A DNA stretch of 64,000 nt, from NCBI GenBank assembly GCA_029884425.1, contig JAOUHV010000005.1:15791-79790 (forward strand), given 5' to 3'. This document shows positions 26,302 to 55,634 of this stretch, piece after piece (position 1 is the first letter of the stretch; each line of letters begins with the position of its first letter). The translations under genes were made by a program, and so were the position numbers. The notes beneath the pieces are model-generated. The model saw nothing but the letters and a program-made list of their open reading frames with translations, searched no databases and was not told where the DNA came from. The DNA comes from Gammaproteobacteria bacterium (lineage in GTDB: Bacteria; Pseudomonadota; Gammaproteobacteria; S012-40).

Positions 26302-27492
26302 ATGATGGACTACCAAACTTTGCTGGCAGTGTTAATTGGCGTGTACTGTCTTCAGGCGATGGCGCTGATTATCACCTGGTACCAAAGTCGGAATGAGGAC
26401 GGTACTCGCGAGTGGGCTGCGGGCGGGGTTTGCATGGCCGCAGGGGCGCTGGTGGTGTTGATTGCCAGCACGATTGCTCACGGCGAAGAAATCGGCCAGC
26501 GAATGGTGCCAGTGACCAGTGCCGGCATTGCGCTGATTGCAACCGGCTGGCTGTTTCTGTGGGCGGGGATACGCCGATTTGTTAATCACCTGGATTTTTC
26601 TTCACATTATCTGGGTCTATTTTTTGTCTTGTTCTATATCTTATTGTTACAACAGCAGTTTTTTACCCTGCCCCTCGGTTGGATTGTGTTCTGTCTGGCG
26701 ACAGTGGTGGCGATTGCCAGTAGCCTGATTTTGGCTGAACTCATGGTGAGCCGCGAGCGTGCAAGTTTGATCAGCCAGTTTATGATGCTGTGCTTTGGTT
26801 TGACGGCACTGCTGTGGGGCGGTCGGGCCGCGTTGGCGTTGCTGGACATGGCGCGGCCACTGGGGACCTTGTTTGATGGCTTGCTGATGTATCAGGCGGT
26901 GTTGGTGACGGTGGCGGTGACCTTGGGGATGATCCTGATGACCACCGAGCGGGTACAAAAGCATCTGCGTGAACAGGCCTCCATTGATTCCCTGACAGGT
27001 TTGTACAATCGTCGCGCATTTCATGATGTAAGTCGGGCAGTGATTGCTGCCGCCGAACGCGATAAACAGCCGGTGGCCTTGGCGCTGCTGGATCTGGATC
27101 ACTTCAAATCCATCAATGATACTTTTGGTCACGGCGTGGGTGACAAGGTGCTGATGCGCTTTGCCAATTTGGCCGAGCTGACTTTTCGTGACCAGGACAT
27201 CCTGGCTCGCTTCGGCGGCGAGGAATTTGTGGTATTGTTGTCCGGTGCGGACGCCGATCAGGCAATGCGCGCATTGCAGCGCCTCCGCCAACGTCTGGAA
27301 ACTGAGTGCATCGAATACCAAGGGGTTTGTGTGCCCAGTACCGTGAGCATAGGCGTGAGTTGTCGGCGTCGCGGAAAAATTGATTTGCATGCCATGCTGG
27401 AAGAAGCGGACAAGGCGTTGTACGACGCCAAGCGCGCCGGTCGTAACCAGGTCATTATGTATCACCTGGGGGATGCGGTGCCGGCAATATAG
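26302..27492 (+). CDS. Membrane-bound diguanylate cyclase (GGDEF) with a polytopic N-terminal sensor domain
   Basis: ~6 TM helices, then a GGDEF domain with active site GGEEF and I-site RDQD. Confidence 0.85.
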   Translation: MMDYQTLLAVLIGVYCLQAMALIITWYQSRNEDGTREWAAGGVCMAAGALVVLIASTIAHGEEIGQRMVPVTSAGIALIATGWLFLWAGIRRFVNHLDFSSHYLGLFFVLFYILLLQQQFFTLPLGWIVFCLATVVAIASSLILAELMVSRERASLISQFMMLCFGLTALLWGGRAALALLDMARPLGTLFDGLLMYQAVLVTVAVTLGMILMTTERVQKHLREQASIDSLTGLYNRRAFHDVSRAVIAAAERDKQPVALALLDLDHFKSINDTFGHGVGDKVLMRFANLAELTFRDQDILARFGGEEFVVLLSGADADQAMRALQRLRQRLETECIEYQGVCVPSTVSIGVSCRRRGKIDLHAMLEEADKALYDAKRAGRNQVIMYHLGDAVPAI

Positions 27493-32536: not shown

Positions 32537-32710
32537 CTATGGGTGTTTGCTGGCTCCTAACTTTTGTGTAAAGCGTTTGACACCCTCCCAGCCAGCGAGC
32601 ACCGCAATCAACAACCCTATACCAAGTATGGGAGTCTTAATCACACTGACAATGCCGCCAAAAACAACGCCAAGAACAGGGATGATGATTTCAAAAGCAC
32701 GCTTGGACAT
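32537..32710 (-). CDS. Small (57 aa) two-TM membrane protein; absent from the ORF track because it is under 60 aa
   Basis: ATG preceded by GAGGA RBS; MSKRAFEIIIPVLGVVFGGIVSVIKTPILGIGLLIAVLAGW... Confidence 0.4.
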   Translation of the reverse strand: MSKRAFEIIIPVLGVVFGGIVSVIKTPILGIGLLIAVLAGWEGVKRFTQKLGASKHP

Positions 32711-32935
32711 AAATTTCCTCGATTATTCAGATACTGCTTGGGACTCATGTATCGGTAAATCCAGCCAAAGATAAAATTTTCTGCAGTAAACAATTGTTAA
32801 TTTCCCAGCGCTTGCCCAGATTGATGGATGAGATAGGTGTGTGCGTGCAGTTTTTTTGTTTGCGGGGCAGCGGCTTAAGTATTGCTACCAACAGGTCGAG
32901 ATACTGGAAAATTACCGGTATTTAATGAGTTGCCC

Positions 32936-34408
32936 ATGGTTCGTATTCTCCTGCTGCTGATGTTGCCGATCTCTGCCCTGGCATGGGACAGCATCGAGCA
33001 GTTGCCCATACCGGAAAGTCGGGCGATGGTGCCCCAGGAGCGTGGCACCTTCAATCAAGCGGTGACCGCAATGATGAGTGGCGACGATGCCACCGCACGC
33101 CAGTTGCTGGCGCCGATGGCGGCTTCCGGGATTACCGATGCGCAATTGTCGCTGGCTACCTTGTTATCGCGCTCGCAGGTAGAGGACGATCAAAAGGAAT
33201 CGGTTAAATGGTTCTATTTTTCCGCAAACGCTGGTGTGTGGCGTTCTCAGTTGGAAATGGCCAAAGCGTATCGGACAGGACGATATGTCGCCCAGGACAG
33301 ATTAAAAGCCTACAAATGGTTGGTGCGTGCTTTGCCCTTGGGGGGCATTGATGTTCTGCAGCAAATGGACGGGCTGGGCAAAGAGCTGTACGCAACCGCA
33401 ACGGCAGAGTTGGATAATGGCAAGACGGCGCGGGCAGTGGAAATACTGACGCCATTGGCAGAATCAGGAATGTTGCCAGCGCAAGAAAAACTGGCAGAAC
33501 TTTATGCCCAACCTCCCACCACTCAGGATAGGCGGCAAAAAATGCGGCTGTGGCTGGATAAGGCTGCCGCTCAAGGTTCACAGTCGGCGCAATATGCACT
33601 GGCGAACATGATTCTGACGATGCCAAGCACCGATGTTACAGAAAAAAATTACGCTATTTCGTTACTGGAAAAATCCGCCGCGCCCGGCAAGGCTGAAGCC
33701 CAATACCAGTTGGGGCGAATGTACATGACTGGCGATGGAGTGGCGAAAAACACCGAGAAAGGACTGTATTACTACCGAATTGCGGCTGAACAAGGTCATC
33801 GTGAGGCCCAGTACGCGTTAGGTGTGCGCTACACCTTGGGCGAGGGCGTTGCCAACGACGATTTCGAAGCCCACCGCTGGTTTAAGCAGGCTGCCAATGA
33901 AGGTCATGCCAAGGCGCAGTACAACCTTGCACTTAGCTATAAGCATGGGCTGGGAACGGCAGTACAGCCAGAAAAGGCGGACTACTGGTTTAAGAAAGCC
34001 GCAGCAGAAGGTCTGACGCGCGGTAACGATAGCAAGAAGGCAAAAAATTCAGATTTGACCAAGTTGCCGGCCGATGCCGGTAAAGGCACAAAAAAAAACT
34101 GGGTAGAGCAGGTGAACGGCGCTAAGTGGTTTGCTGCATTGCCCAAACAAGGTTTCACCATTCAGGTGGTGACAGGCAATGAAGCGGAAGCAATAAGGGC
34201 ATTCATTCAAAACAATAAGTTGGCTGAAAATAAATATTTTCACTACGTCCAGCATAGTGGCACCAATAGCCGTCATGTGGTGCAGTGGGGTTATTTCAGT
34301 AGCTACGAAGAAGCCAAAAAAGCGGCAATACAAATTTCCAAAGGTTATACCCAATTTAAGCCTTGGATCAGATCGGTCGACAGTGTCAAAAAGAGTCTGC
34401 ATAGCTAG
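32936..34408 (+). CDS. Secreted Sel1-like repeat (SLR) protein with a C-terminal SPOR (peptidoglycan-binding) domain; first gene of the stator/FliG-like operon
   Basis: Signal peptide MVRILLLLMLPISALA, multiple Sel1 repeats (AQYALGVRYTLGEGV, AQYNLALSYKHGLG...), C-terminal SPOR-like FTIQVVTGNEAEAIRAF...WGYFSSYEEAKKA. 19-nt gap to the motA-like gene. Confidence 0.7.
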   Translation: MVRILLLLMLPISALAWDSIEQLPIPESRAMVPQERGTFNQAVTAMMSGDDATARQLLAPMAASGITDAQLSLATLLSRSQVEDDQKESVKWFYFSANAGVWRSQLEMAKAYRTGRYVAQDRLKAYKWLVRALPLGGIDVLQQMDGLGKELYATATAELDNGKTARAVEILTPLAESGMLPAQEKLAELYAQPPTTQDRRQKMRLWLDKAAAQGSQSAQYALANMILTMPSTDVTEKNYAISLLEKSAAPGKAEAQYQLGRMYMTGDGVAKNTEKGLYYYRIAAEQGHREAQYALGVRYTLGEGVANDDFEAHRWFKQAANEGHAKAQYNLALSYKHGLGTAVQPEKADYWFKKAAAEGLTRGNDSKKAKNSDLTKLPADAGKGTKKNWVEQVNGAKWFAALPKQGFTIQVVTGNEAEAIRAFIQNNKLAENKYFHYVQHSGTNSRHVVQWGYFSSYEEAKKAAIQISKGYTQFKPWIRSVDSVKKSLHS

Positions 34409-34427: not shown

Positions 34428-35252
34428 GTGTTTATATCGTGGGACACCTTATTTGGAATGTTGGCAGGGTTCGGCCTGTTTGCCTTTGCCATTGTTTCAT
34501 CGACAGACAACGCAATGATTTTCTGGAGCGTGGCCAGCCTGGCGATGGTTATCGGTGGTACGTTTGCCTCGATCATTATTTCCTATCACTCGCGTTATGT
34601 GTTCAAAACATTTAAGGCGCTATTCGCGATGATGGTGCCCATGCAGGTTTCGCCAACAACATTGCTTGGTGATGTTAGGTTGCTGCTGGAGTGGAGTCAG
34701 GAAGTCAGACAAAACGGCACAGCGGTGTTGGATGACAAACTGGAAAATGCAAGCAACAAGATGGATGGCTTCACCAAATATGGTTTGCTATTGCTGACGA
34801 CGGGCTACAAGGGCGATGAGCTGCGTGAATTACTGGAAGAATTCAAAGAAACCATCTTTGAACGTGCACAAGTTCAGGTAGGCGTGCTGAAAACCATGGC
34901 GGCCTATGCGCCGGCATTTGGCATGATTGGTACGCTGGTTGGTTTGATCATTATGCTGGACAACTTGAAAGGGGATGTCAGCGGCTTGGGACAGGGGTTG
35001 GCACTGGCATTGATTACGACGTTATACGGTGTATTGGCAGCTAATCTGGTGTTTAAACCGGCGGCATTAAAAACCGACCAGAAAAACAATACTGCAAGAT
35101 TTAGAAATACATTAATGATCGAGGGTTTTGTGATGCTAAGTACCAAGACCGAGCCACTTAAGATGCAAGATAAATTGAATAGCTTTCTCGATCCCGAGTT
35201 GCATTTTGACATGCTCACTCCTGATGCCGGTAAAAAAGGGAAAAAGAAATAG
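34428..35252 (+). CDS. MotA/PomA-family stator protein (4-TM proton channel subunit), non-flagellar context
   Basis: Topology TM1-TM2, a ~110-aa charged cytoplasmic loop, then TM3-TM4 with PAFGMIGTLVGLI and ITTLYGVLAANL motifs. This matches MotA/PomA rather than the 3-TM TolQ/ExbB layout. Confidence 0.8.
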   Translation: MFISWDTLFGMLAGFGLFAFAIVSSTDNAMIFWSVASLAMVIGGTFASIIISYHSRYVFKTFKALFAMMVPMQVSPTTLLGDVRLLLEWSQEVRQNGTAVLDDKLENASNKMDGFTKYGLLLLTTGYKGDELRELLEEFKETIFERAQVQVGVLKTMAAYAPAFGMIGTLVGLIIMLDNLKGDVSGLGQGLALALITTLYGVLAANLVFKPAALKTDQKNNTARFRNTLMIEGFVMLSTKTEPLKMQDKLNSFLDPELHFDMLTPDAGKKGKKK

Positions 35253-35258
35253 CATCCT

Positions 35259-35975
35259 ATGTCGATTAAAAAACTGGGGCGTAGGCGCCGTGAACGCATG
35301 GAAAACAAGGATGAGGGTGAAGACTGGTTGCTTACCTATAGCGATACGGTCACGCTGATTATGACCTTCTTTGTGCTGATGCTGTCTGTGTCTACCATCG
35401 ATCAGGCAAAGTTCGATGCGGTTACCGAGGCGGTGAAAGAGCATGGTCTTTCCGGGAATGGCAAATATGTATCACCTTTTGAGGTTTTAAAAGAAAAAAT
35501 GGATCAGGTGACGACCAACTATCATCTGCAAAAAGACATGACGGTGGTACGAGAACCTAAGGGTTTGACTATCGAGTTGTCATCTTCAGCGCTGTATGAA
35601 GTAGGTAGTGCTGATATACAAGAAGAAGCCAAAAATGCCTTGAATGCTGTTGCTGAGGCCATCAAGAATTTTGAGTATCCACGCTATCGGATAGAAGTGG
35701 AAGGTCATACCGATGACGTGGCGATAAGTACACAGCGGTATCCATCCAATTGGGAATTGTCGGTACATCGTGCGACTAATGTGGTTCGTTATTTGACGCA
35801 GGAGGGCGTTCCACAAAGCAAGATGAAGGCTACAGGATATGCCGACACCAGACCTAAAGTGCCAAATTTGGACGACAACGGTGAACCAATTGCAGAAAAT
35901 CGGGCAATTAACCGAAGAATAGTTATACATGTGGAGCGTGACGACAACCCAGTCACCAAAGGGGATAAGAAGTGA
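35259..35975 (+). CDS. MotB/PomB-family stator protein with a C-terminal OmpA-like peptidoglycan-binding domain
   Basis: Basic N-terminus, single TM with the conserved Asp (LLTYSDTVTLIMTFFVLM), OmpA-like domain (NWELSVHRATNVVRYL...NRRIVI). Confidence 0.8.
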   Translation: MSIKKLGRRRRERMENKDEGEDWLLTYSDTVTLIMTFFVLMLSVSTIDQAKFDAVTEAVKEHGLSGNGKYVSPFEVLKEKMDQVTTNYHLQKDMTVVREPKGLTIELSSSALYEVGSADIQEEAKNALNAVAEAIKNFEYPRYRIEVEGHTDDVAISTQRYPSNWELSVHRATNVVRYLTQEGVPQSKMKATGYADTRPKVPNLDDNGEPIAENRAINRRIVIHVERDDNPVTKGDKK

Positions 35976-37090
35976 GTACGCAAACAACATATCACCAACG
36001 ACCGAATATGGTGCTGATGCTGATGATTGGTTTCGTTCTGCAAATGACCGTTTTTGGTGAGGTGCTGGCTGCTGAGACCGAAATCAAGCAGATCCGCTAC
36101 GGTGCACACAAGTCGGAAAATATGGCCTATGCCGATGAGTTAATGAAATTTAGTGAAATGCTGAATTCTGAGCAAATACTGTCGATGGCCGAATTGAATA
36201 AGATGGATTTCGCGGTTCGCTCGGTGGCGTTTTATCGCATTGGTGATCGACAGAATAAGTTGTTTGATCGTCATTTTTACGAAACGATCGAGCAGAAGAT
36301 GATTAACAAATTCACAGGTTTGAATCGTTTCTCCATACATGAATGTTTTGAATGTAAGACGACGCGGGTGTTGCTCAAGGAAAAGCAATTTTCAGTGCTT
36401 CGCCAATTGGATTCTAACGAGAGTCTAAAAGAGCTGGGTGAAAAAATAGGAGTAGATCACTTTATTCTGTGGGATGCCTACATGCACAAAGACAGCCCTA
36501 TGCTCAATATTCGTGTTGTGAGTGCGGCGAGTGGACAGGTTCGCTGGAGTCGGCAATATCAGGGTGAGCAGCAATTGCAAGAACTCAATTGGGAGTTTTA
36601 TACCTCGGTTTGGGGTGTTGAGGCGGTACGTCAAGCCAAAACAACGGCGAACTATGATTCTGTGGTTACGCCCATCATCGCGGTGGGTTTTCGTCGATTG
36701 GCAGAGTCGACGATTTCCAAGCGCTTATTCTACGGATATGGAGCTGAAGCTTTTTTTAACACCGAGGGACGCGCCGAAATTGATATATATGGTTTTGATG
36801 TTAACGGCCGCGTAGCGATTGAGTTGGATCCATCCCTGGGGATGGAAGATAAAACCTACGGTAACTGGTTGGCTTATTTTTCAGTGGGACAGGCATTTTT
36901 GTTGAATACGCCGACCCTGGTGATGCGTTCAGGTATCGAAATGCGGATCAATAAAAAGAGTTTTATCGATTTGGGAACGGTGACAATAAAAGAGAAAGAA
37001 TTTGAAGTGCGTGCCAATAGTAAATATGTCAGCAAGGCAACCATTGGCGGCACAAATTATGATCTAACCATTGGCTACCGATTTCAATGA
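35972..37090 (+). CDS. Secreted protein of unknown function, 372 aa, with a beta-rich C-terminal half
   Basis: Signal peptide; C-terminus ...NYDLTIGYRFQ is beta-strand-like. Translationally coupled to its neighbours by 4-nt overlaps. Confidence 0.45.
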   Translation: MSTQTTYHQRPNMVLMLMIGFVLQMTVFGEVLAAETEIKQIRYGAHKSENMAYADELMKFSEMLNSEQILSMAELNKMDFAVRSVAFYRIGDRQNKLFDRHFYETIEQKMINKFTGLNRFSIHECFECKTTRVLLKEKQFSVLRQLDSNESLKELGEKIGVDHFILWDAYMHKDSPMLNIRVVSAASGQVRWSRQYQGEQQLQELNWEFYTSVWGVEAVRQAKTTANYDSVVTPIIAVGFRRLAESTISKRLFYGYGAEAFFNTEGRAEIDIYGFDVNGRVAIELDPSLGMEDKTYGNWLAYFSVGQAFLLNTPTLVMRSGIEMRINKKSFIDLGTVTIKEKEFEVRANSKYVSKATIGGTNYDLTIGYRFQ

Positions 37091-37698
37091 GGATAGCAAT
37101 GATGAACAGAAAAAAATGGATAATTGGGCTGGCACTTCTGATGATATTGTCCGCATGCGGTACAACCGAAGAGCGACTGGATGCTGCTGAAAGTCAGGTA
37201 GCGGAATCATCGTCAGAAGAAGATTTGCCCGTGACACCCGAAGGAACGGCATTGACCAAGCAGCCAGGTATGATCAAGATTGAGCGGCACACACCAGGTT
37301 ACACCATCAGTATGATGCTGGATGCCACTGACGACAATGTATATTTTGTGATGGACTTGCCACCTGAGGAGCTGCAAAAGAATCAGGAGCCAGAGAATTC
37401 AAAGCAAACACCACAAAATAAGGCGTCCCAGTCGGTGCAAGACAATGGTTCTGGTGGTGCCAACAAACATGTCCTTTATGCCCAGACCTATTTTTTTGAA
37501 AAAAAATATGATCGCGCCATGAACGAAATAGATCGTTCGCTGGAAAAAGATCCAAACAATGCGGTGGCATATTCATTGAAAGGGTCGATCCACTATAAGC
37601 GTGGTGAAAAATCTAAAGCAGTACAGGCGTGGGAAAAGTCCCTGGAAATTGATCCAAACCAGGATAACGTCAAAAAAATGCTAAATAATCTGAAATAG
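37087..37698 (+). CDS. Outer-membrane TPR-repeat lipoprotein
   Basis: Lipobox LLMILSAC followed by G at +2; two C-terminal TPR repeats (YAQTYFFEKKYDRAMNEIDRSLEKDPNNAVAYSLKGSIHYKRGE...). Confidence 0.65.
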   Translation: MRIAMMNRKKWIIGLALLMILSACGTTEERLDAAESQVAESSSEEDLPVTPEGTALTKQPGMIKIERHTPGYTISMMLDATDDNVYFVMDLPPEELQKNQEPENSKQTPQNKASQSVQDNGSGGANKHVLYAQTYFFEKKYDRAMNEIDRSLEKDPNNAVAYSLKGSIHYKRGEKSKAVQAWEKSLEIDPNQDNVKKMLNNLK

Positions 37699-37712: not shown

Positions 37713-39875
37713 ATGGCGTATTCGGTGAAGATAAGACTGGGTTCAATGCGGTGGCTGTTGCTGGGAATGATCGGCATGGTGTGGATGCCTGTGGCACAGC
37801 CGGAGGAAGAAACCCAGCGTGTTGCCGTAAGCCAGGTTGAGCAATCGCGATTTGACCGGGATCTTGAAGCCCGTTTAAGTCGAGACATTAAGGCATATTT
37901 GGATCACGATTTCTTTATCGTTCAAGCAAAATCTCTGCTGGAAAAATTAAACGCCTATGAAACCAGTAAGCAAAAAATAACCGTTCCGGTAGAACCATCG
38001 GCGCAGCAAGCCAAAGCGCAGCAGCAACAGGATGCAGCACGACAGGAGTTGCTGAATCAAATGGAGTTGGAAACAGAAGACGGCATTAATGCGCAAAATG
38101 CAGAGCAAGCCGAAGATGTGAGCGATCTTGCCTTGCCAGGCTTGCCAGTTTCAGAACAAACATTTGCACAGCAAACCAATGCGCAACAGAAACAACGTCA
38201 GGCTCAGAAACAGCCAATGATGTCGGCGCCGGTTCCACAAATGACCCCTGCATTTGAAACGCGTGAAGAAACCAAAAAAGAGTTGAAGGACTCGCGCATT
38301 GATATCAAACAATTGTCCGTCAAAGTGGTGTTGGATAATCATGTAACACCCGAGCAGGAAACGTTTATTCGCAATCTGGTAATTGAAAAAGCCAATGTGA
38401 ATTTTATCCGTGGCGATGAGTTACGGCTGGTCAGAACAAATTTTCCGGGTGCGACGGTGCTTGATCCCAAGCCTGTTGAAGAAAAGGCAGAAGATAAAGA
38501 AGAAAAATCAGTTGAGCCGGAAAAACCGCTGCCAACGGAGGCGGAGAAAGATGCACAACAGCGCGCACTGGCGTGGCTGGAACAATATTGGCCATATCTC
38601 GCAGCAATCTTAGCGCTGGTGTTGTTGTGGTTGATGTTGCGGCGCAACAATAAAGCTCAGACTAATGCCCCATCGGCTCAAACCACACCGGTGAGTGATT
38701 CCAAAGATAAGCTGGATGCATTTATCGAAAAATTGAGCTTTGCTCAGGATAATGTGGCCGACCAGAAATTGCGTGCACTACGCGAAGAGCTGGTGAGTAT
38801 GACGGTGACTGAGCGAAACCTGTTTACCGGGCAAATGGTGGATTGGTTGAATGCCGGCGGTCAGGAGGATGTGGCGCGTGTCGCGGCGGTAGTGAATCTC
38901 GTCGGTCCCGGCTTAATGGTAGGTTTGCTCAAGGGACAGATCGACGGCGAGAAATTAATGGGCCTGTTGGCCATGGCTGAGGAGTTGGCGCGGGATAATT
39001 CGCCATCTGAGTTGATGGAAAAAGTTGAACAGGCCTATCAAACCCTGGCACGTCGGCGCTTGCAGGAAAATATTACTGAGGAACATAAAATTCGGCCGTT
39101 CGATTTCCTTGAGCGCTTGAATGATGATCAAATTCTGTATTTGTTAAATGACGAGCGTATGCCTGTGCGTGCGTTGGTTTATTCGCAATTGCCAGCGGAG
39201 CGTGCAGCTGGATTGCTCAAGCGCATTGGTGGTGATGATCGTGCCGCCTTGGCCATGGAAATCAGTCGTTTTTCGCATTTGCCGGCAGCATCGTTCCGCG
39301 ATATCGCAAATCGTTTGGCGCGCAAGGCAGTGGATGTGCCCAGCTTTGCCAATATTGCGGTGGATGGCGTGGATGTGCTTATCGGCATGCTGGATCATCT
39401 CGATAGTTCTGAGGAAACAGCATTGTTGCTCAACGTCCGTCAGACCAATCCCGATTTGTACTATCGCATCAAGCAGGTGTACATCAGCTTTAATGATCTG
39501 GTGAGCTTGCCTACATTGGCGCTGAAGAATTTGATTCGCGAAGTCAGTCGCGAGGATTTGGCGATGGCTTTGCACGATGTTGACGATACTTTCCGTGATA
39601 CGATTCTGGCTTCTATGCTTGAGCGGCCGCGTGCCATGCTGGTTGCTGCGATCCGGGACTTGAAGGATGTGAATCCGCTGGCAGTGAATGAAGCCAAGCG
39701 CAAGGTAGCGCGCCGCGCCCGCTCCATGCTCAAAGCCGGTGAATTTAAATTGCCGTCGCCAGAAGCCAAAACCGCACAATCGACGCCTAAGCCCAAAGCG
39801 GCAACGGCTGAGGCTCCGTCAGGCAAGCCCGCGCCGCCTGCACCTCCTCCCCCGCAAGCGCCACCATCCAAATAA
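37713..39875 (+). CDS. Two-TM inner-membrane protein with a FliF-RBM3-like periplasmic segment and a cytoplasmic full-length FliG-like (N/M/C) module: a candidate minimal FliF-FliG-fusion-like rotor protein
   Basis: TM1 at ~aa 13-27; periplasmic aa 28-292 with a Gln/Ala-rich region and IDIKQLSVKVVLDNH...RGDELRLVRTNFPG (compare FliF IERLSVAVVVNY...RGDTLNVVNSPF); TM2 LAAILALVLLWLML; FliG_M-like IRPFDFLERLNDDQILYLLNDERMPVRALVYSQLPAERAAGLL; FliG_C-like FNDLVSLPTLALKNLIREVSREDLAMALHDVDDTFRDTILASMLERPRAMLVAAIRDL...; Pro-rich tail. Confidence 0.6.
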   Translation: MAYSVKIRLGSMRWLLLGMIGMVWMPVAQPEEETQRVAVSQVEQSRFDRDLEARLSRDIKAYLDHDFFIVQAKSLLEKLNAYETSKQKITVPVEPSAQQAKAQQQQDAARQELLNQMELETEDGINAQNAEQAEDVSDLALPGLPVSEQTFAQQTNAQQKQRQAQKQPMMSAPVPQMTPAFETREETKKELKDSRIDIKQLSVKVVLDNHVTPEQETFIRNLVIEKANVNFIRGDELRLVRTNFPGATVLDPKPVEEKAEDKEEKSVEPEKPLPTEAEKDAQQRALAWLEQYWPYLAAILALVLLWLMLRRNNKAQTNAPSAQTTPVSDSKDKLDAFIEKLSFAQDNVADQKLRALREELVSMTVTERNLFTGQMVDWLNAGGQEDVARVAAVVNLVGPGLMVGLLKGQIDGEKLMGLLAMAEELARDNSPSELMEKVEQAYQTLARRRLQENITEEHKIRPFDFLERLNDDQILYLLNDERMPVRALVYSQLPAERAAGLLKRIGGDDRAALAMEISRFSHLPAASFRDIANRLARKAVDVPSFANIAVDGVDVLIGMLDHLDSSEETALLLNVRQTNPDLYYRIKQVYISFNDLVSLPTLALKNLIREVSREDLAMALHDVDDTFRDTILASMLERPRAMLVAAIRDLKDVNPLAVNEAKRKVARRARSMLKAGEFKLPSPEAKTAQSTPKPKAATAEAPSGKPAPPAPPPPQAPPSK

Positions 39876-39880
39876 CCGCA

Positions 39881-39909
39881 AAGAGAGCTATTGGCTCTCT
39901 TTGTTTTTG
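39881..39909 (+). terminator. Rho-independent terminator ending the stator/FliG-like operon
   Basis: aagagagc-tattg-gctctctt hairpin plus a T-run. Confidence 0.7.
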
Positions 39910-40241: not shown

Positions 40242-41480
40242 TTGTTAATTGGACTGTCTATGTCAAAAGCTAGCAAACCTGTGATCCATAGGTTGCGGTG
40301 CTGCGTTTTAGTGGCATTGCTGGCTTTGCCGTTGCTCAGTTGGGCGGAGGACCGGGTGATGTCAGTCTATACGATGGGAGCTGTGACCATCCTGCCAAGT
40401 GTAGGCCTGGAATACCGGCATGACGATAATATTTTTTCCGCCAACCAGGGTCAGAAGGCATCTGATGTAGGTGTAGCAAATTCGAGCATTGCCGCCAAAA
40501 TCAGCAATGATATTAGCGAGGGCGCGCTGTTGTACTCGGTAGAGAAAGGCACTTATCAAAGCAGCCCCGAGGATGACTATCTGGATCAGCGAGCAGGACT
40601 TGGTTTTCATCATGCGTTTCGGCGATGGGCCATCATTGATCTCGCGTTAGGGCAAGATCAGTTGCACGAAGCGCGTGGGCAAGGTTACAGCCAGGGTAAA
40701 GCTGATTTACTGCCAGCGCCGGATTTATATGTCACAGATACGGCGAATTTCCTGTTTCGGCTGGGGACGCGGCGATCACAAGGTATGTTTGAATCGCAAT
40801 TGGCGGGAACTTCGCTGCGCTATACCACACGTGAGGCACAAACCGCGGGCCGGAATAACGATTACATTTCCGGACGACTGACCTACCATTTTAATCTTTC
40901 CAGCAAAACCAGTTTGCTCGCAGAAACGCGTTATGGGCAGTACGACTACATCAACGAAACCTCGCTCATTCGTCGTGACAGCAGTGAGCAGCACTATTAT
41001 CTCGGGTTGTCGTGGGAGCTCAGTAGTCTTAGTCGAGGTTCCATCAGAGTCGGACAGCAAAAAAAGATATTTGTTGATCAGGCATTGATGGCGGATAGCA
41101 GCAATAGTTGGGAAATGAAGCTGTTCTGGAAGCCAACACCACTGGCGAGCATCAAATTCGGTACGTCTGCAAAAAATCAGGAAAGTGTGGGAATGGGCAG
41201 TCATGTTTACAGTGAGGCTGGATTTTTCGCGATCAAAAACTCACTGACCAAGCGGTTGGGCATGGATATGAGTACGCAAATCACCAAGAACAGCTATCGC
41301 CCAAGCGGACGCAACGAGCTGTTGGGAGCAGTTGCAGCCAAAGTGATTTATAGCTCGAATCGCTGGATACATCTAGATTTCGGCATAGATCATGAACAAC
41401 GTAGAAGTGACCAGGCGATGATGAATTATCGCCGAAGCATCGTCAGCATGGGGATTCGAATCAGTCCGAAAGATGATTAA
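40242..41480 (+). CDS. Outer-membrane beta-barrel protein, putative partner of the short Wza-like exporter
   Basis: Signal peptide, alternating amphipathic beta-strand pattern throughout. 8-nt overlap with the downstream Wza-like gene. Confidence 0.5.
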   Translation: MLIGLSMSKASKPVIHRLRCCVLVALLALPLLSWAEDRVMSVYTMGAVTILPSVGLEYRHDDNIFSANQGQKASDVGVANSSIAAKISNDISEGALLYSVEKGTYQSSPEDDYLDQRAGLGFHHAFRRWAIIDLALGQDQLHEARGQGYSQGKADLLPAPDLYVTDTANFLFRLGTRRSQGMFESQLAGTSLRYTTREAQTAGRNNDYISGRLTYHFNLSSKTSLLAETRYGQYDYINETSLIRRDSSEQHYYLGLSWELSSLSRGSIRVGQQKKIFVDQALMADSSNSWEMKLFWKPTPLASIKFGTSAKNQESVGMGSHVYSEAGFFAIKNSLTKRLGMDMSTQITKNSYRPSGRNELLGAVAAKVIYSSNRWIHLDFGIDHEQRRSDQAMMNYRRSIVSMGIRISPKDD

Positions 41481-42225
41481 GCCAAACGTAGCACGGATAT
41501 GGATTGGGATATGGCTGTGCTTGCTGGTGGCAAGTGCTGGTGCGTTTGATCGCGCCTACACATTGGGTACCGGTGATGTAGTGTCTATTCAGGTATTTGG
41601 TGAACCGGAATTAAGCCTGCAATTGCGCATTGATGACAGTGGAAATATTGCCTATCCCCTGTTGGGAGAGTTACCCATCGCTGGTCAGACATTGAATGGA
41701 CTGGAACAAATTTTGATTACTCGCCTTAAAGGTGGCTATCTGATCGATCCCAAAGTCAGTGTGTCGGTGATCGAATATCGGCAGTTTTTCATAAATGGCG
41801 AAGTCAGCAAGCCCGGAGGGTATCCATACATTCCCGGTTTGACTTTGCGCAAGGCGATTGCTCTTGCCGGCGGCATGACTGAATTGGCGTCGGTTGATCG
41901 TATTACCTTGATTCGTGAACACGATGTATCACGCACCGAAGTTTCAGTAGATATGGAAGCCAAGGTATTGGCTGGCGATATCATTACGGTTAAAGAATAT
42001 AAAAAAATATTTATTCATGGCGAAGTAAGGAAACCGGGAAGCTATGGTTATAGCCCTGACTTGACCGTGAGAAAAGCGATCGCGTTGGCTGGCGGTTTAA
42101 CTGAGCGAGGTTCGGAAGGCAAGGTGACATTGCAGCCGGACAACGGAACAGGAAAGCGCGTCGAATTGCTGGACGAAAAAGTGACCCCCGGGGATTTAAT
42201 AACCGTTGGTGAACGGTTTTTTTGA
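41473..42225 (+). CDS. Short Wza-like periplasmic polysaccharide export protein (Poly_export plus SLBB domains, no C-terminal OM helix)
   Basis: 250 aa with signal peptide, a PES motif region and duplicated SLBB (ITLIREHD.../KVTLQPDNG...). Lacks the Wza D4 helix. Confidence 0.85.
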   Translation: MIKPNVARIWIGIWLCLLVASAGAFDRAYTLGTGDVVSIQVFGEPELSLQLRIDDSGNIAYPLLGELPIAGQTLNGLEQILITRLKGGYLIDPKVSVSVIEYRQFFINGEVSKPGGYPYIPGLTLRKAIALAGGMTELASVDRITLIREHDVSRTEVSVDMEAKVLAGDIITVKEYKKIFIHGEVRKPGSYGYSPDLTVRKAIALAGGLTERGSEGKVTLQPDNGTGKRVELLDEKVTPGDLITVGERFF

Positions 42226-42234
42226 GGGATGTAG

Positions 42235-44391
42235 GTGAAAAAACAGGATCATGCACGGCAGGAGCAGCCTGACGACGAGATCGACCTGCGCGAATATTGG
42301 CGAGTAATTAATCGACGCAAGTGGTCGATATTGGCGTTCGCCGGTAGTGTTTCACTGATTACCACGTTGGTGGTCTATTCTTTATCCCCGATATATCAGG
42401 CGACAGCGACTGTATTGATCGAATCGCCACAAAAAAATGCGACCAGTTTGGAGGAGGTTTATGGACTGGAACGAGTCGGCAATGAGTTTTTCAAAACCCA
42501 AGTCGAGATACTGAAATCCCGCGAATTGGTTGATCGAGTTGTCGGTGAACTAGGGCTGTTGGAGAATCCTGAATTTTCCATGAAAAACAATAATGGATAT
42601 CGGGAGAAGTTAGCATCTATTCTTCCATTTCTCCATCAGCCAGAGAAGGAATTAACAGTTGAAGAGCGGAAAAATGAGATTGTTCGTAGCATCTCGAGTA
42701 GTTTGAATGTTTCTGATATTCGCGGTACCCAGCTTGCCAAAGTTAGTTTTGAAAGCCATGACCCGGTGATGGCAGCCAAAGTAGCTAATAAATTTGTCGA
42801 TGCCTACATTGAGTACAATTTTGATATTCGTCTGGCAGCCCGAGACAAGTCATTGGCATGGTTAAATGAACGGTTGGGGCCGCTTAAAAATTCGTTGTCT
42901 GAGTCAGAAAAAAAGCTGCAGCAATATCGTGAACAGCAAGGGTTGGTGGATGTCGAGGGTGTCAGGAGTCTGGTAGCCAAAGAATTGAATGAAATCACCG
43001 TGGATTTTGTTGAAGCCAGGACAAAGCGGGCGCAGCTGGAAAACGTGCTTCAACAAATTGGAAATGGTGATGAATGGATCAACAATCCGACGATACTAAA
43101 TCACCCTGCGATGCAGAAATTGATTGGTCAGCGGGCCGATGCAGAGCAGCAGTTGTCCGAATTGGGGAAAAGGTATGGGGCAAAGCATCCGAAAATGGTT
43201 GCGGCACAGAACCAGCTTCTGGCCGTTCAGAAAAATATGCAGCAGCAGCTTTCAGGTGTGGTTGAAAGCATTAAAAAGGATTACCTGATAGCAAAAAATA
43301 ATGAAAATTCGCTACAAAAAAACATGGATAAAGTAAAGGAAGAAGTCCAGGATATAAATCGCAAGGAGCATCAGCTTAATGAGCTTGTGCGAGAGGTGGA
43401 TGCCAATCGCAAAGTATATGAGTCATTTTTAACCCGGTTTCAGCAAACGGGAGCACTTGGAAGTTATGATCAGGTGAATATTCGTTTGGCTGAAGCTGCG
43501 GCCGTCCCTATTTCTCCATCAAAGCCTAACAAAAAACTTATTATCGCACTGTCATTTATGGCAAGTATTATGTTGGCTGTTATGGCTGCTTTCTTTCTTG
43601 AGTTTATCAATAACGGTGTTCGCCGGATTGAAGATGTTGAAAATAAATTGTCGCAGCGATTGCTGGGTATTGTTCCCCAGGTTGCGGTTGATGATGAAAG
43701 CAGACTAAAACCAGAGAGCATATTTTCGGATGAAAATCTTCGTTCTATGGCGGAGTCAATGCGTGCCGTGAGAACGGCCATGTGTCGTTCAGGTGCGGAA
43801 AAATCCAAAATTATTTTGGTCACATCCTCTTTGCCTGGCGAGGGGAAGACGACGGTGTCATGCGCGCTTTCCTATGCATTCGCGCAGATTGAAAGGGTGC
43901 TGTTGATTGATGCGGATATGCGGAAGCCATCGGTTAGTAAACTATTTTCCATTCCGCATAAGCATAGGGGCTTGAGCAATCTGATTGTTGGTGAGCCCAA
44001 TGTTAGGGATTGTTTTTTAGTGCAGCCAAATGCCAATCTGACGGTTGTTCCATCTGGGGTTGTTCCTGCAAATCCATCGGAGCTTCTATCTAGCGATCGG
44101 TTTGCTATGATGCTGAAAAAATTGGCGAAACATTACGATCGAATAATTATTGACTCACCACCGATTCATGCAGTCAGTGATGCACTGATTATTTCTCGTC
44201 TGGTGGATGAGGTGGTGTATGTCGTTAAATCGGATGCGACGCCCTTGCCGGTTGTGAAGGAAGGTATTGCCCGTTTGCAGCAGGCGGATGTCAAAATGGC
44301 CGGGGTTGTTCTGAATCATTTTAACGTACGAGAGGCTGATTACTATCAGTACTACTATGGCAGTTACGACTACACTACAGCAAAGAGCTAG
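42235..44391 (+). CDS. Wzc-like polysaccharide co-polymerase / BY-family tyrosine autokinase
   Basis: Wzz-like N-domain with two TMs and a coiled-coil periplasmic region, Walker A SSLPGEGKTT, Walker A'/B, C-terminal Tyr cluster YYQYYYGSYDY. Confidence 0.88.
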   Translation: MKKQDHARQEQPDDEIDLREYWRVINRRKWSILAFAGSVSLITTLVVYSLSPIYQATATVLIESPQKNATSLEEVYGLERVGNEFFKTQVEILKSRELVDRVVGELGLLENPEFSMKNNNGYREKLASILPFLHQPEKELTVEERKNEIVRSISSSLNVSDIRGTQLAKVSFESHDPVMAAKVANKFVDAYIEYNFDIRLAARDKSLAWLNERLGPLKNSLSESEKKLQQYREQQGLVDVEGVRSLVAKELNEITVDFVEARTKRAQLENVLQQIGNGDEWINNPTILNHPAMQKLIGQRADAEQQLSELGKRYGAKHPKMVAAQNQLLAVQKNMQQQLSGVVESIKKDYLIAKNNENSLQKNMDKVKEEVQDINRKEHQLNELVREVDANRKVYESFLTRFQQTGALGSYDQVNIRLAEAAAVPISPSKPNKKLIIALSFMASIMLAVMAAFFLEFINNGVRRIEDVENKLSQRLLGIVPQVAVDDESRLKPESIFSDENLRSMAESMRAVRTAMCRSGAEKSKIILVTSSLPGEGKTTVSCALSYAFAQIERVLLIDADMRKPSVSKLFSIPHKHRGLSNLIVGEPNVRDCFLVQPNANLTVVPSGVVPANPSELLSSDRFAMMLKKLAKHYDRIIIDSPPIHAVSDALIISRLVDEVVYVVKSDATPLPVVKEGIARLQQADVKMAGVVLNHFNVREADYYQYYYGSYDYTTAKS

Positions 44392-44397
44392 GCGATT

Positions 44398-45090
44398 GTG
44401 TTTGTAGGAAAGATGAAAAAAATCGTAATTGTATTTGTCATGGTTTTCATCGCATATGTTGTCGTTCAGGCGAGTCGAATATTTTTAAGCAGTGCCAATG
44501 CATCCAGTGTTTACGCCCAGATTGCTTATTTGGAGTCCAAGCCATCGGTAGATGGCTTTCAGTGGCAAACTTTGGCGGAGAAGCTAAGTTTTTCACGTTG
44601 GCTGAATGGGGATAGCCCAGATTATCGTGATGTAGAGCAAATGCTTCTGCTGCGGTCGGGTGAAGTGCGGCCTGGAAGTGTCCTGGAGCAATATCGATTA
44701 CTGCTCAGGCAGCGGCCTTCGTGGCCCTATGCATGGTTAAATCTTCTGGTAGCCAAAGGTCACGCCAAAGAGTTTGATGAAGAATACCATCACGCCTGGG
44801 CGCGGCTGGCGGTGTTGGCACCGTGGGTCAAAAAAGTGAATGCCGCACTTCTGGTGGAAGGTTTGCGTGATTGGGATGAATTGGACGACGCTACCCGTGC
44901 ATTGGTAGTCGATGTTGTCGCAAACGGCTTGTCTATGCATCCCTCAATTGTCGACGTACAGTTGAAAGAATATCAACGGAGGTTCCAGCTTTGTGCGGAA
45001 CTGGAGGTAAATCAACGCGCCGTGCTGTCATGCACTGACGATGCATCATTCGATGCCGTTTTATCAACAGGCGACGAAGCGCATGAGTAG
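44398..45090 (+). CDS. Hypothetical membrane-anchored protein, 230 aa
   Basis: N-terminal TM; no recognisable motif. Confidence 0.35.
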   Translation: MFVGKMKKIVIVFVMVFIAYVVVQASRIFLSSANASSVYAQIAYLESKPSVDGFQWQTLAEKLSFSRWLNGDSPDYRDVEQMLLLRSGEVRPGSVLEQYRLLLRQRPSWPYAWLNLLVAKGHAKEFDEEYHHAWARLAVLAPWVKKVNAALLVEGLRDWDELDDATRALVVDVVANGLSMHPSIVDVQLKEYQRRFQLCAELEVNQRAVLSCTDDASFDAVLSTGDEAHE

Positions 45091-46564
45091 TCCTTATTTC
45101 TCTCATGAACGATGTGGTGTTGAGAAAGCGATTTTTACATTGCTGCTGGTCGTTTTGTTTATTGCGCCATGGCCACTGGGAAGTAATCGGGATTGGGCAT
45201 GGCCGGTGATTTCTGTCTTGCTGGCGATTGCCGCCTTGCTCTATGTTTGTTTTTACGGTATTTGCTTCACGGCCAGTGCGGCGCTGCGACAGGCGCGCTG
45301 GGCTGTTGCTTGTTTTTTGTTGCTCATTATCTGGCAAGTGCTGCAATCGTTGCCATTACCTACTGCTTGGATAAATGCTCTGTCGACTGGTGCGGCACAA
45401 CTTTATTTGGCAACAGATGCGCGACTGGAAAATGTGCCGTTATCGCTTGACGCTTATGCGACGTCGCTGGCTTGGATGAAGACGCTGACTTATGTGCTGA
45501 TGTTTGTGTTGTTGTTGCAACTGACAACCAATCGAACTCGTCTTCAATGGTTGTTTGGGGTGGTGGTGATCAGTGGCTTGTTGCAGGCGTGTTATGGCAG
45601 TTTAATGGCGTTGACCGGCGCGTCTCAGGGTGTCTTTATTCAAAATAATGATGTTTCATCAGCCACAGGCAGTTTTGTGAATCGCAATCATTTTGCGGGG
45701 TTCCTAGGTTTGTGTCTGGCAATGGGCACGGGCTTGTTGGTGGCAAAATTATCAACGACACCGGCAACAAATTTGCGCCAGTTTGCGCGCCAATCCCTTG
45801 TTACATTGCTGGGTGAAAAGGCGCGTCTACGCCTAGCGCTGGCGATGATGGTGATTGCATTGGTGCTGAGTCACTCCCGAATGGGGAATAGCGCATTTTT
45901 TATCAGTTTGTTGCTGACGAGTGTGCTGGCGTTGGTAGTGCTGTGGTGGCGACGCAAGCGCAATGGCAATCGGCGACATCATCGTCACTGGCGACCGGTG
46001 ATATGGCTAGTGACCAGTTTGATGGTGATTGACATTGCGATTGTTGGTGCATGGTTTGGGGTCGATCGAGTGGTTGAGCGCTTGCAAAATACCTCCATGC
46101 AGACTGAGTCCAGGGATGAGGTTAATCAGTACGGAATGGCGGTGCTGGAGGATTATTGGCTCACTGGGGTGGGCGGCGGAGCCTATTACGTGGTGTTACC
46201 AGGCTATCAAGATGAGAAATTCACTGGATTTTATGACCAAGCTCACAATGATTACCTGCAGTTTGCCATAGAACTGGGGGTGCCGGCCGCTATAGTTTTG
46301 GCAATGGTGGTGTTTTTGGCGCTGGCGGCGGCTTTGAAGGCGCTGTTGTTGCGCCGTTCCACGTTTTATTTTGGGGTGGCATTTGCAGGATTTATGGCTG
46401 TTTCGGGTTTATTGATGCACTCATTTGTCGATTTCAATTTGCAGATTCCTGCCAATGCGCTTTATTTTGTGACTGCGTTGGCGTTGTGTTTTATCGCTGA
46501 AACACTGGAGTCGAAGCGCTACCATCGTGGCGATGTGCCCACCCATGGAGAGCATTCATCATGA
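45083..46564 (+). CDS. O-antigen ligase / Wzy_C-family polytopic membrane protein (polymerase or ligase-like)
   Basis: ~10 TMs, FVNRNHFAGFLGLCLA and SHSRMG loop motifs typical of the Wzy_C family. An alternative upstream ATG lies at 45041. Confidence 0.65.
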   Translation: MSSPYFSHERCGVEKAIFTLLLVVLFIAPWPLGSNRDWAWPVISVLLAIAALLYVCFYGICFTASAALRQARWAVACFLLLIIWQVLQSLPLPTAWINALSTGAAQLYLATDARLENVPLSLDAYATSLAWMKTLTYVLMFVLLLQLTTNRTRLQWLFGVVVISGLLQACYGSLMALTGASQGVFIQNNDVSSATGSFVNRNHFAGFLGLCLAMGTGLLVAKLSTTPATNLRQFARQSLVTLLGEKARLRLALAMMVIALVLSHSRMGNSAFFISLLLTSVLALVVLWWRRKRNGNRRHHRHWRPVIWLVTSLMVIDIAIVGAWFGVDRVVERLQNTSMQTESRDEVNQYGMAVLEDYWLTGVGGGAYYVVLPGYQDEKFTGFYDQAHNDYLQFAIELGVPAAIVLAMVVFLALAAALKALLLRRSTFYFGVAFAGFMAVSGLLMHSFVDFNLQIPANALYFVTALALCFIAETLESKRYHRGDVPTHGEHSS

Positions 46565-55439: not shown

Positions 55440-55634
55440 TCAGGTGTCGTTGCTCTGTGGAGGAGCGTGCTGATCCAGATTCGGGGTTTCGTTGGTCGGT
55501 ATTTTGTAACTTTCGTCTGCCCAGGCGCCCAGGTCAATAAGCTTGCAGCGTTGGCTGCAGAATGGTCGCCACTTGGATTGATTATTCCAGGCAACATCCT
55601 GTCCGCAATGAGGGCACTGAACAATGGTGGTCAT
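55440..55634 (-). CDS. yacG: DNA gyrase inhibitor YacG (zinc finger)
   Basis: CPHCGQ...[17 protein letters not shown]. Confidence 0.85.

Follow-up and report, generated by a model that had tools for sequence, protein, structure and literature searches.

The MotA-FliG contact is the textbook torque-generating contact, and FliG and FliF are both regarded as flagellum-specific proteins. In E. coli, MotA E98 pairs with FliG R281, and in flagella the RBM1 and RBM2 domains make up the inner M-ring around the export gate. Among stators, PomAB and MotPS belong to the 'FIT / TGI4' class of Puente-Lelievre et al. 2025 (PMC12505986), in which the FIT criterion is a torque-generating interface (TGI) of at least 4 helices together with a 'square fold' transmembrane (TM) domain whose TM3 is unbroken. 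Na+-driven stators conserve three threonines, two of which are Ala in H+-driven stators, and PomA D114 has been reported to be indispensable for rotor coupling (PMC10374538). The locus described here lies in a 64-kb stretch of contig JAOUHV010000005.1 from a Gammaproteobacteria bacterium (64,000 nucleotides, hereafter the window). The gene pair at 34428-35975 is, as judged from sequence, a genuine flagellar-type stator of the MotA5B2 class and of a PomAB/MotPS-like subtype. The functional unit is not this stator pair alone: it is a larger envelope-spanning cassette, the predicted products of which are homologous to the flagellar motor core and which most likely constitutes a minimal, non-switching rotor-stator machine.

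The stator gene pair

Both open reading frames (ORFs) are found on the + strand at exactly the positions given by the original prediction, which was made from the DNA letters without database searches, and are separated by 6 nucleotides (nt), as it had stated. The MotA/PomA-type A subunit (34428-35252, + strand) starts with GTG and is 274 residues long. A hydropathy scan resolves four rather than three hydrophobic segments (residues 7-25, 34-52, 159-177 and 191-209), and the charged cytoplasmic loop between TM2 and TM3 spans ∼105 residues with 13 K/R and 14 D/E, close to the ∼110 residues first estimated. The two motifs quoted for this subunit, PAFGMIGTLVGLI from residue 162 and TTLYGVLAANL from residue 197, are both present. 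The MotB/PomB-type B subunit (35259-35975, + strand, ATG start, 238 residues) likewise shows the anticipated basic N-terminus, MSIKKLGRRRRER, and a single TM segment with LLTYSDTVTLIM from residue 24, which carries Asp29, followed by a plug and the expected C-terminal OmpA-like peptidoglycan-binding domain. The corresponding Pfam families are recovered far beyond chance (MotA_ExbB, 2.2e-21; MotB_plug, 1.5e-17; OmpA, 8.8e-20).

Family-level comparisons consistently return flagellar stators. The best NCBIfam models for the A subunit are all flagellar (MotP, 4.5e-43; PomA, 4.6e-35; MotA, 2.1e-33), with ExbB reaching only 5e-3, and those for the B subunit are MotD (1.2e-50) and MotS (7.7e-42). In the PDB, the A subunit matches flagellar MotA/PomA chains only at E<=0.01 (C. 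sporogenes MotA, 1.2e-35; V. alginolyticus PomA, 5.5e-24), with no ExbB, TolQ, GldL or ZorA chain at this threshold, and PomA and C. sporogenes MotA each align to it from end to end, over residues 6-257. The best PDB match of the B subunit is flagellar MotB (6ysf, 1.9e-30), followed by MotS and PomB. Against E. coli proteins, the alignment with MotA spans TM2-TM4 including the loop, and the similarity to TolQ (1e-4) and ExbB (1e-3) is confined to TM3-TM4. A neighbor-joining (NJ) tree, relied on here solely for the separation from TolQ/ExbB, sets all MotA homologs apart from these proteins rather than inside the TolQR/ExbBD group; E. coli MotA is misplaced on a long branch in this tree. The flagellar-only family matches, the four TM segments, the plug and the OmpA domain together bear out the earlier assignment of the pair as flagellar-type rather than Tol/Exb-type.

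Within the flagellar-type stators, the A subunit lacks ∼15 residues of the E. coli-specific 103-124 insert (TGI5) found in E. coli MotA and shares the gap pattern of PomA. This suggests a PomA-like protein with a short cytoplasmic domain of the 'TGI4' type in the scheme of PMC12505986.

The rotor candidate and its predicted contact with the stator

The gene at 37713-39875 (+ strand) encodes a 720-residue rotor candidate that the original prediction had described as a FliG-like protein. The FliG domains are confirmed, but the description covers only part of the protein, which Pfam, profile, hhalign and fold matches identify as a FliF-FliG fusion. Pfam recovers FliG_C (6e-19), FliG_M (4e-11) and, weakly, YscJ_FliF_C (1.5e-3). 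The family profile built from alignment A1 scores 3.2e-32 against T. maritima FliG_MC and 4.2e-4 against Salmonella FliF (233-558), and hhalign aligns the rotor family to E. coli FliF 373-550, covering RBM3b, TM2 and the FliG-binding tail, at 96.2% and to E. coli FliG 118-326 at 96.9%. Structurally, the AlphaFold model (pLDDT 71.5) presents, in order, a signal/TM helix, a beta-alpha-long hairpin unit, a disordered loop (93-180), a long hairpin-alpha-beta unit, a TM helix at ∼291-313 and helical FliG-like domains. Foldseek aligns this model to full-length FliG over ∼320-330 columns, to FliF S-ring/RBM3-collar structures (E ∼1e-5, prob 1.0) and to FliG_C with TM-scores of 0.91-0.92, including 0.92 for stator-bound FliG_C (8ucs_H).

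The architecture thus delineated comprises a signal peptide, RBM3 with a beta-collar, a TM helix, a FliF C-tail-like segment and FliG N/M/C domains with a torque helix at 637-648. RBM1 and RBM2 are absent: the periplasmic part is ∼260 residues long and is fully taken up by RBM3, the collar and the disordered loop. By homology and predicted fold, the 720-residue protein is a natural single-chain fusion of the ring-building part of FliF to a complete FliG. Its score against the TIGR00207 fliG model is 82.8, relative to a cut-off of 226.7, and NCBI gives it no name beyond 'FliG C-terminal domain-containing protein' or 'hypothetical protein'.

The disordered loop at the collar tip (window 38007-38252; residues ∼99-180) contains an LPGLP motif, in which L141, P142, G143 and P145 are present in 26/26 aligned sequences. 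A motif of the LPG[LIVM]P type occurs in 92 of 131 rotor family representatives, compared with 0 shuffled controls. The motif resembles a short linear binding motif and could possibly serve to bind the TPR lipoprotein encoded by the adjacent gene.

Residues at the rotor-stator interface were mapped through PomA and E. coli alignments, with conservation counted over 29 modules (28 for MotB D29 and FliG-like position 638). MotA R94 (PomA R88, E. coli R90) is invariant in 29/29 modules, and position 102 (D in the window; PomA E96, E. coli E98) is D or E in all 29. Also invariant throughout are P162 and P211, equivalent to E. coli P173 and P222, and T169/T197/T198, equivalent to PomA T158/T185/T186; MotB Asp29 is invariant in 28/28. 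On the rotor side, 28/28 modules, and 148/159 sequences when the wider family is counted, carry R or K at position 638, which corresponds to E. coli FliG R281, and E637 is invariant in the window clade. The FliG D288/D289 equivalents are positions 645/646, both Ala in the window protein; the D289 equivalent (646) is E or D in 24/24 Oceanospirillales modules. These conserved charge partners, together with the co-occurrence of the genes in 28/28 loci (see below), strengthen the argument for a genuine stator-rotor pairing, first made from gene arrangement within the window.

Two further features concern the specialization of this interface. Between the window and Oceanospirillales clades, the MotA loop is only 27% identical, as against 66% for the TM segments, and this far greater divergence fits a loop adapting to its own rotor. 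In the EHPQR motif, which binds FliM, only E481 is kept, and this loss, combined with the lack of FliM or FliN genes nearby, argues for a rotor without a switch. As for the driving ion, the invariance of T169/T197/T198 makes Na+ coupling a reasonable inference, and the stator is probably Na+-coupled.

Cassette conservation and gene content

The stator and rotor genes belong to a cassette of six closely packed + strand genes followed by a terminator-like hairpin, which upholds the proposed co-operonic arrangement with the FliG-like gene. A locus scan with alignment A1, using one genome per species, turned up 28 loci that encode a relative of the rotor protein. A scan with the single FliG-like sequence returned no genome loci. 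In tblastn searches with the window proteins, MotA, MotB and the TPR lipoprotein are encoded beside the FliG-like gene in 28/28 loci, and the outer-membrane protein X372 in 27/28, the exception being a locus (L021) that begins within the cassette. Gene order differs between lineages. The window-type order, MotA-MotB-X372-TPR-FliG-like after a Sel1-SPOR gene, is shared by the window and three 'Ectothiorhodospiraceae'/Gammaproteobacteria metagenome-assembled genomes. The Oceanospirillales-type order, X372-TPR-FliG-like-MotA-MotB, is found in Thalassolituus, Oleispira, Bermanella, Oceanobacter, Bacterioplanoides and relatives. Carriers include Bermanella sp. R86531 (NZ_CP139003.1), Thalassolituus pacificus and T. 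maritimus DSM 24913. In Bermanella, the cassette is flanked by fumarase and pterin dehydratase genes on one side and pyrG/eno on the other, which indicates that it is self-contained.

The family extends well beyond these genomes. Word-indexed protein search underrates it, with 26 matches for the FliG-like protein and 21 for X372, relative to an exhaustive profile search that recovers 230 cluster representatives of the rotor at E<=1e-30, of which ∼130 are proteins of 540-780 residues matching from RBM3b onward. Eight distant metagenome contexts were sampled (loci L037-L044). A TPR gene adjoins the FliG-like gene in 7/8 of them and MotAB in 5/8. Contigs L038 and L041 display a third order, FliG-like-X372-TPR-MotA-MotB, and L042 the Oceanospirillales-type order. 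In L040, the order is MotB-X372-TPR-(FliF-like paralog)-TPR-FliG-like with MotAB adjacent, and in L039 it is TPR-(FliF-like paralog)-FliG-like-(Sel1-SPOR homolog). That the linkage outlasts gene-order permutation and a fall to 23-30% protein identity argues strongly for a joint function of these genes. No other flagellar genes were seen in the Bermanella flanks or in the metagenome contexts sampled; FliM/N, export, rod and hook genes are absent near the cassette in the window and in the sampled flanks, and in the 64-kb window none was found besides the FliF-FliG fusion.

Several of the distant contexts have peculiarities of their own. The additional products of L039:6725-7993 and L040:2828-3715 match only the periplasmic FliF-like part of the rotor (A1 profile, 3.8e-18 and 6.3e-12, respectively) and would be a second ring-building paralog without FliG. 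At L043:10496-13573, on a 2.2-Mb metagenome contig, TPR-FliG-like-MotA-MotB genes with no adjoining X372 gene are followed on the same strand by MoxR-type AAA, DUF58, DUF4381 and VWA genes in a Bat/MoxR-like arrangement. L037:9001-12709 encodes a 771-residue family member without MotAB, TPR or X372 genes nearby, followed by a KAP-family P-loop NTPase.

Relatives of the stator were also found outside the cassette. On metagenome contig SRR24079474_11600 (L035:904-10713), MotA/MotB genes immediately precede those for a TpsB-type transporter (POTRA_2/ShlB) and a two-partner-secretion (TPS) exoprotein of >2600 residues with a TPS domain. The MotA of this locus is 57% identical to the window MotA, closer than most cassette MotAs, and the locus is another non-flagellar context for a flagellar-type stator. 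A MotA from an MCP-MotA-MotB context (P0081) is 51% identical to the window protein.

The remaining cassette genes all encode envelope proteins. The first of them (32882-34408, + strand), an accessory member of the cassette, encodes a 508-residue periplasmic protein with Sel1 repeats (Pfam, 9.3e-35), a C-terminal peptidoglycan-binding SPOR domain (2.3e-07) and an N-terminal hydrophobic segment at residues 17-35; it ends 19 nt before motA. Its match to Vibrio MotX (NF047621) is 4.3e-13, or 49 bits against a cut-off of 330, and other Sel1 families score equally well or better. Homologs occupy the same position in L001-L003, and one with 30% identity (E 8.5e-64) adjoins the distant FliG-like gene of L039; none was seen by tblastn beside the Oceanospirillales modules. 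X372 (35972-37090, + strand, 372 residues) is an outer-membrane protein whose gene overlaps both motB and the TPR gene by 4 nt. It has a signal peptide, and its AlphaFold model (pLDDT 77.7) shows a two-part structure, with a periplasmic LpoB/TolB-N-like alpha/beta domain bearing a conserved CxxC and a C-terminal 8-strand beta-barrel. X372 matches no Pfam or NCBIfam family, and Pfam is likewise blank for all 20 family members. The TPR lipoprotein (37087-37698, + strand, 203 residues) carries the lipobox LSAC, within MNRKKWIIGLALLMILSAC, and about three TPR repeats (Pfam TPR_2, 1.6e-11; TPR_1, 1.4e-10); 14 nt separate its gene from the FliG-like gene. An intrinsic-terminator-like hairpin (39879-39908, + strand), with a 10-bp stem, a 5-nt loop and a following TTTTT, lies immediately 3' of the FliG-like stop codon, and the gap before the next gene, at 40242, is 366 nt.

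That gene opens an exopolysaccharide (EPS) export and polymerization cluster (40242-46564) encoding an EpsL-like BBP2_2 barrel, a Wza/EpsE-like exporter, a Wzc-like protein with Wzz, GNVR and P-loop regions, a 230-residue protein and a Wzy_C-domain protein; its adjacency to the cassette is not kept in other genomes. On the other side, ∼5 kb upstream of the cassette and beside a probable EF-P gene, 26302-27492 encodes a GGDEF diguanylate cyclase (1.2e-43) that shows no sign of being connected with the cassette. A ∼51-codon ORF (32560-32715, - strand), located between the cytochrome genes and the cassette and read by eye, would encode a very hydrophobic peptide (MSKRAFEIIIPVLGVVFGGIVSVIKTPILGIG...). 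Further away, a single 501-residue ORF (55631-57136, - strand) combines CoaE (dephospho-CoA kinase, 4-180) with the cell-division domain ZapD (264-475). CoaE and ZapD are normally encoded by two adjacent genes, and this ORF is either a real fusion or an ORF-call artefact.

The proposed machine, its alternatives and related systems

Homology, domain architecture and the conservation of both contact residues and gene linkage are directly supported, and a functional reading can be built on them. They make it probable that a dedicated flagellar-type stator acts on the fused rotor within a non-flagellar cassette. The fusion protein would build an S-ring-like ring in the inner membrane, with the FliG_C torque helices beneath it. 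The stator would be tied to peptidoglycan by MotB, and ions passing through the Asp29 channel would turn the MotA pentamer, whose R94 and D/E102 would engage the torque helix through R/K638 and its neighbors and thereby turn or strain the ring. Rotation is expected to be unidirectional and outside CheY control, since FliM/FliN are lacking and EHPQR is lost. Such a ring would surround no export gate and carry no rod, in keeping with the missing RBM1/2 domains that enclose the gate.

The path by which torque would leave the ring is held with less confidence than this core statement. We infer that the most likely contact of the collar loop, which bears the LPGLP motif, is with the TPR lipoprotein, the outer-membrane barrel protein or both, giving an envelope-spanning machine. 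In the window lineage, by analogy with the MotX/MotY scaffold, the Sel1-SPOR protein may hold the stator in place on peptidoglycan; the similarity to MotX itself is sub-threshold. The fuller picture is of a free-standing, axle-less rotary machine that passes torque through an S-ring-like collar and the LPGLP loop to an outer-membrane complex of TPR lipoprotein and barrel for work on the envelope. It is put forward tentatively, at slightly less than an even chance. A machine of this kind would either have descended from the flagellar motor core by losing parts or survive as a relative of it that works without type III export.

Several observations weigh against a dedicated stator-rotor machine. 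Every NCBIfam stator score is well under its equivalog cut-off (MotP, 147 bits vs 394; PomA, 121 vs 341; MotA, 115 vs 340; MotD, 172 vs 283), which places the pair as flagellar-type without making it an ortholog of any named flagellar stator. None of the modules has an acidic residue at the PomA D114 equivalent. The window clade has A/S and A/T at the D288/D289 equivalents and there lacks one classic charge pair. The non-acidic D114 equivalent and the Ala/Ala pair in the window indicate a modified interface, and from the alignments this interface is best described as conserved at its core but modified. No MotAB genes were found near the FliG-like genes of L037, L039 and L044. In addition, the window MotA is nearer the TPS-linked and MCP-linked MotAs mentioned above than the cassette MotAs of L038 (38%) and L041 (32%), and cassette MotAs form no supported clade (NJ support 11/100). 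With closer relatives outside and no monophyly inside, the stator is not exclusive to the cassette, which suggests repeated stator exchange between the cassette and other systems. Finally, no axle or output element could be identified.

In an alternative reading, the pair is one of the ordinary stators of a flagellum encoded elsewhere, and the FliG-like protein regulates it, for instance by sequestering stator units as a decoy or parking site. The stator is flagellar-type throughout, close relatives occur in chemotaxis-type contexts such as the MCP-MotA-MotB of P0081, cassette stators are not monophyletic, and the Oceanospirillales genera with the module are presumably flagellated. Yet the stator travels with the FliG-like, TPR and outer-membrane barrel genes in 28/28 loci and through three gene orders, a decoy needs no FliF-type ring-building domain, barrel or lipoprotein, and a diverged loop (27%) without the D114 equivalent fits a dedicated partner better than a canonical C-ring; we regard the ordinary-stator explanation as distinctly unlikely. 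An ion-driven envelope-maintenance or division device resembling Tol-Pal, energizing peptidoglycan or outer-membrane processes through the SPOR, LpoB-like and TPR proteins without continuous rotation, is also unlikely, if a shade less so, and differs from the dedicated machine mainly in its output. In Tol-Pal, too, TolB, Pal and the TPR protein CpoB accompany a 5:2 motor, and all accessory parts of the cassette have an envelope or peptidoglycan flavor (SPOR, the LpoB/TolB-N-like fold, the TPR lipoprotein and the OmpA-like MotB domain). These likenesses are fold-level analogies, however; the Sel1-SPOR gene is absent beside the Oceanospirillales modules, and the retention of the torque helix and of the MotA residues that would contact it speaks for real torque generation.

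Two further explanations fare worse. In the window, the EPS genes begin 366 nt downstream on the same strand, and the cassette might on that account drive or gate the EPS export system (EpsL-like barrel, Wza, Wzc and Wzy-like proteins). A terminator lies between the two, however, tblastn finds no BBP2, Wza or Wzc homolog beside the cassette in the 28 loci, and unrelated housekeeping genes flank it in Bermanella and in metagenome contigs. With the adjacency not conserved and a terminator intervening, the functional link was rejected as very improbable. Least credible, to the point of being negligible, is that the pair is a Tol/Exb-type energizer or a Zorya-type anti-phage motor. The MotA_ExbB superfamily is common to all of these, and ZorB models match the MotB-like protein at 7.5e-19, a match explained by the plug and OmpA domains common to both. 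TolQR and ExbBD, however, combine a three-TM A subunit of condensed cytoplasmic domain with a B subunit devoid of an OmpA-like domain and with TolA or TonB, and Zorya combines a long-tailed ZorA with ZorC/D, ZorE or ZorF/G. Tol/Exb identity is nevertheless contradicted by the four TM segments and 105-residue loop of the A subunit, by the restriction of ExbB/TolQ matches to TM3-TM4 and by the OmpA domain of the B subunit, and Zorya identity by ZorA models reaching only 4.7e-3, a non-match, and by the lack of the long ZorA tail in the 274-residue protein. No ZorC/D-like or TolA/TonB-like gene is present in the operon according to Pfam and PADLOC models, and the PADLOC models match none of the remaining operon proteins. 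Both identities were rejected on these grounds.

The free-standing rotary machine would, if real, be the first use of a FliF/FliG rotor and flagellar-type stator outside the flagellum. If the cassette functions as suggested here, a rotor-stator core can persist independently of type III export, rod, hook and switch complex, with a bearing on flagellar motor evolution and on whether rotation could pre-date or separate from secretion. A new envelope-spanning, ion-driven machine would then join Tol, Ton, Agl-Glt, T9SS and Zorya. The cassette is conserved and apparently undescribed: no description of it was found in the full-text literature searched, where PF01706 in PMC8789113 is a methods mention only. 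It occurs in at least 28 species-level genomes, and the rotor family in at least ∼130 clusters at 50% identity in metagenomes. With six genes, no switching and probably Na+ as the driving ion, it offers a simpler system in which to study torque generation, and cultivated carriers include Thalassolituus and Bermanella.

Among described systems, the stator most resembles PomAB of Vibrio and MotPS of Bacillus. It shares with them a four-TM A subunit with an expanded cytoplasmic domain, the R88/E96 equivalents, the two prolines and the three threonines, a B subunit with a TM Asp, plug and OmpA-like domain, and adjacent A and B genes. Unlike them, it has sub-cut-off family scores and a non-acidic D114 equivalent, and it is encoded with a FliF-FliG fusion and outer-membrane proteins rather than in a flagellar regulon. 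The rotor retains the flagellar FliF and FliG core, namely RBM3 with the beta-collar, TM2, the FliG-binding C-tail, FliG N/M/C and a torque helix with the R281 equivalent. FliF-FliG fusions have been engineered for structure work (e.g., PDB 8z4d), and the cassette rotor is a predicted natural counterpart. Unlike flagellar FliF, it is without RBM1/RBM2, and hence without a housing for the export gate, and a signal peptide replaces TM1; unlike flagellar FliG, it has lost EHPQR and, in the window clade, the D288/D289 equivalents, and no FliM/N, export, rod or hook genes accompany it.

The accessory proteins recall the periplasmic scaffolds that hold stators in high-torque motors, the Vibrio MotX/MotY T-ring and FlgT H-ring and the Campylobacter TPR proteins PflA/PflB, in that Sel1, peptidoglycan-binding, TolB-N/LpoB-like and TPR proteins stand beside a Na+-type stator. 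This likeness is a lead only; FlgT, PflA and PflB were not recovered in the searches, and MotX gave no significant family-level match. Unlike in those scaffolds, Sel1 is fused here to SPOR and the LpoB-like domain to an outer-membrane barrel. In overall organization, the cassette parallels GldLM of the type IX secretion and gliding system, AglRQS-Glt, TolQR-TolA-Pal, ExbBD-TonB and ZorAB, in which an inner-membrane ion-driven motor is encoded with periplasmic, lipoprotein and outer-membrane barrel partners. Whereas GldLM, AglRQS-Glt, TolQR, ExbBD and ZorAB employ TolQ/ExbB-like or otherwise distinct A subunits and have no FliG/FliF rotor, the stator and the rotor of the cassette are both flagellar-type.

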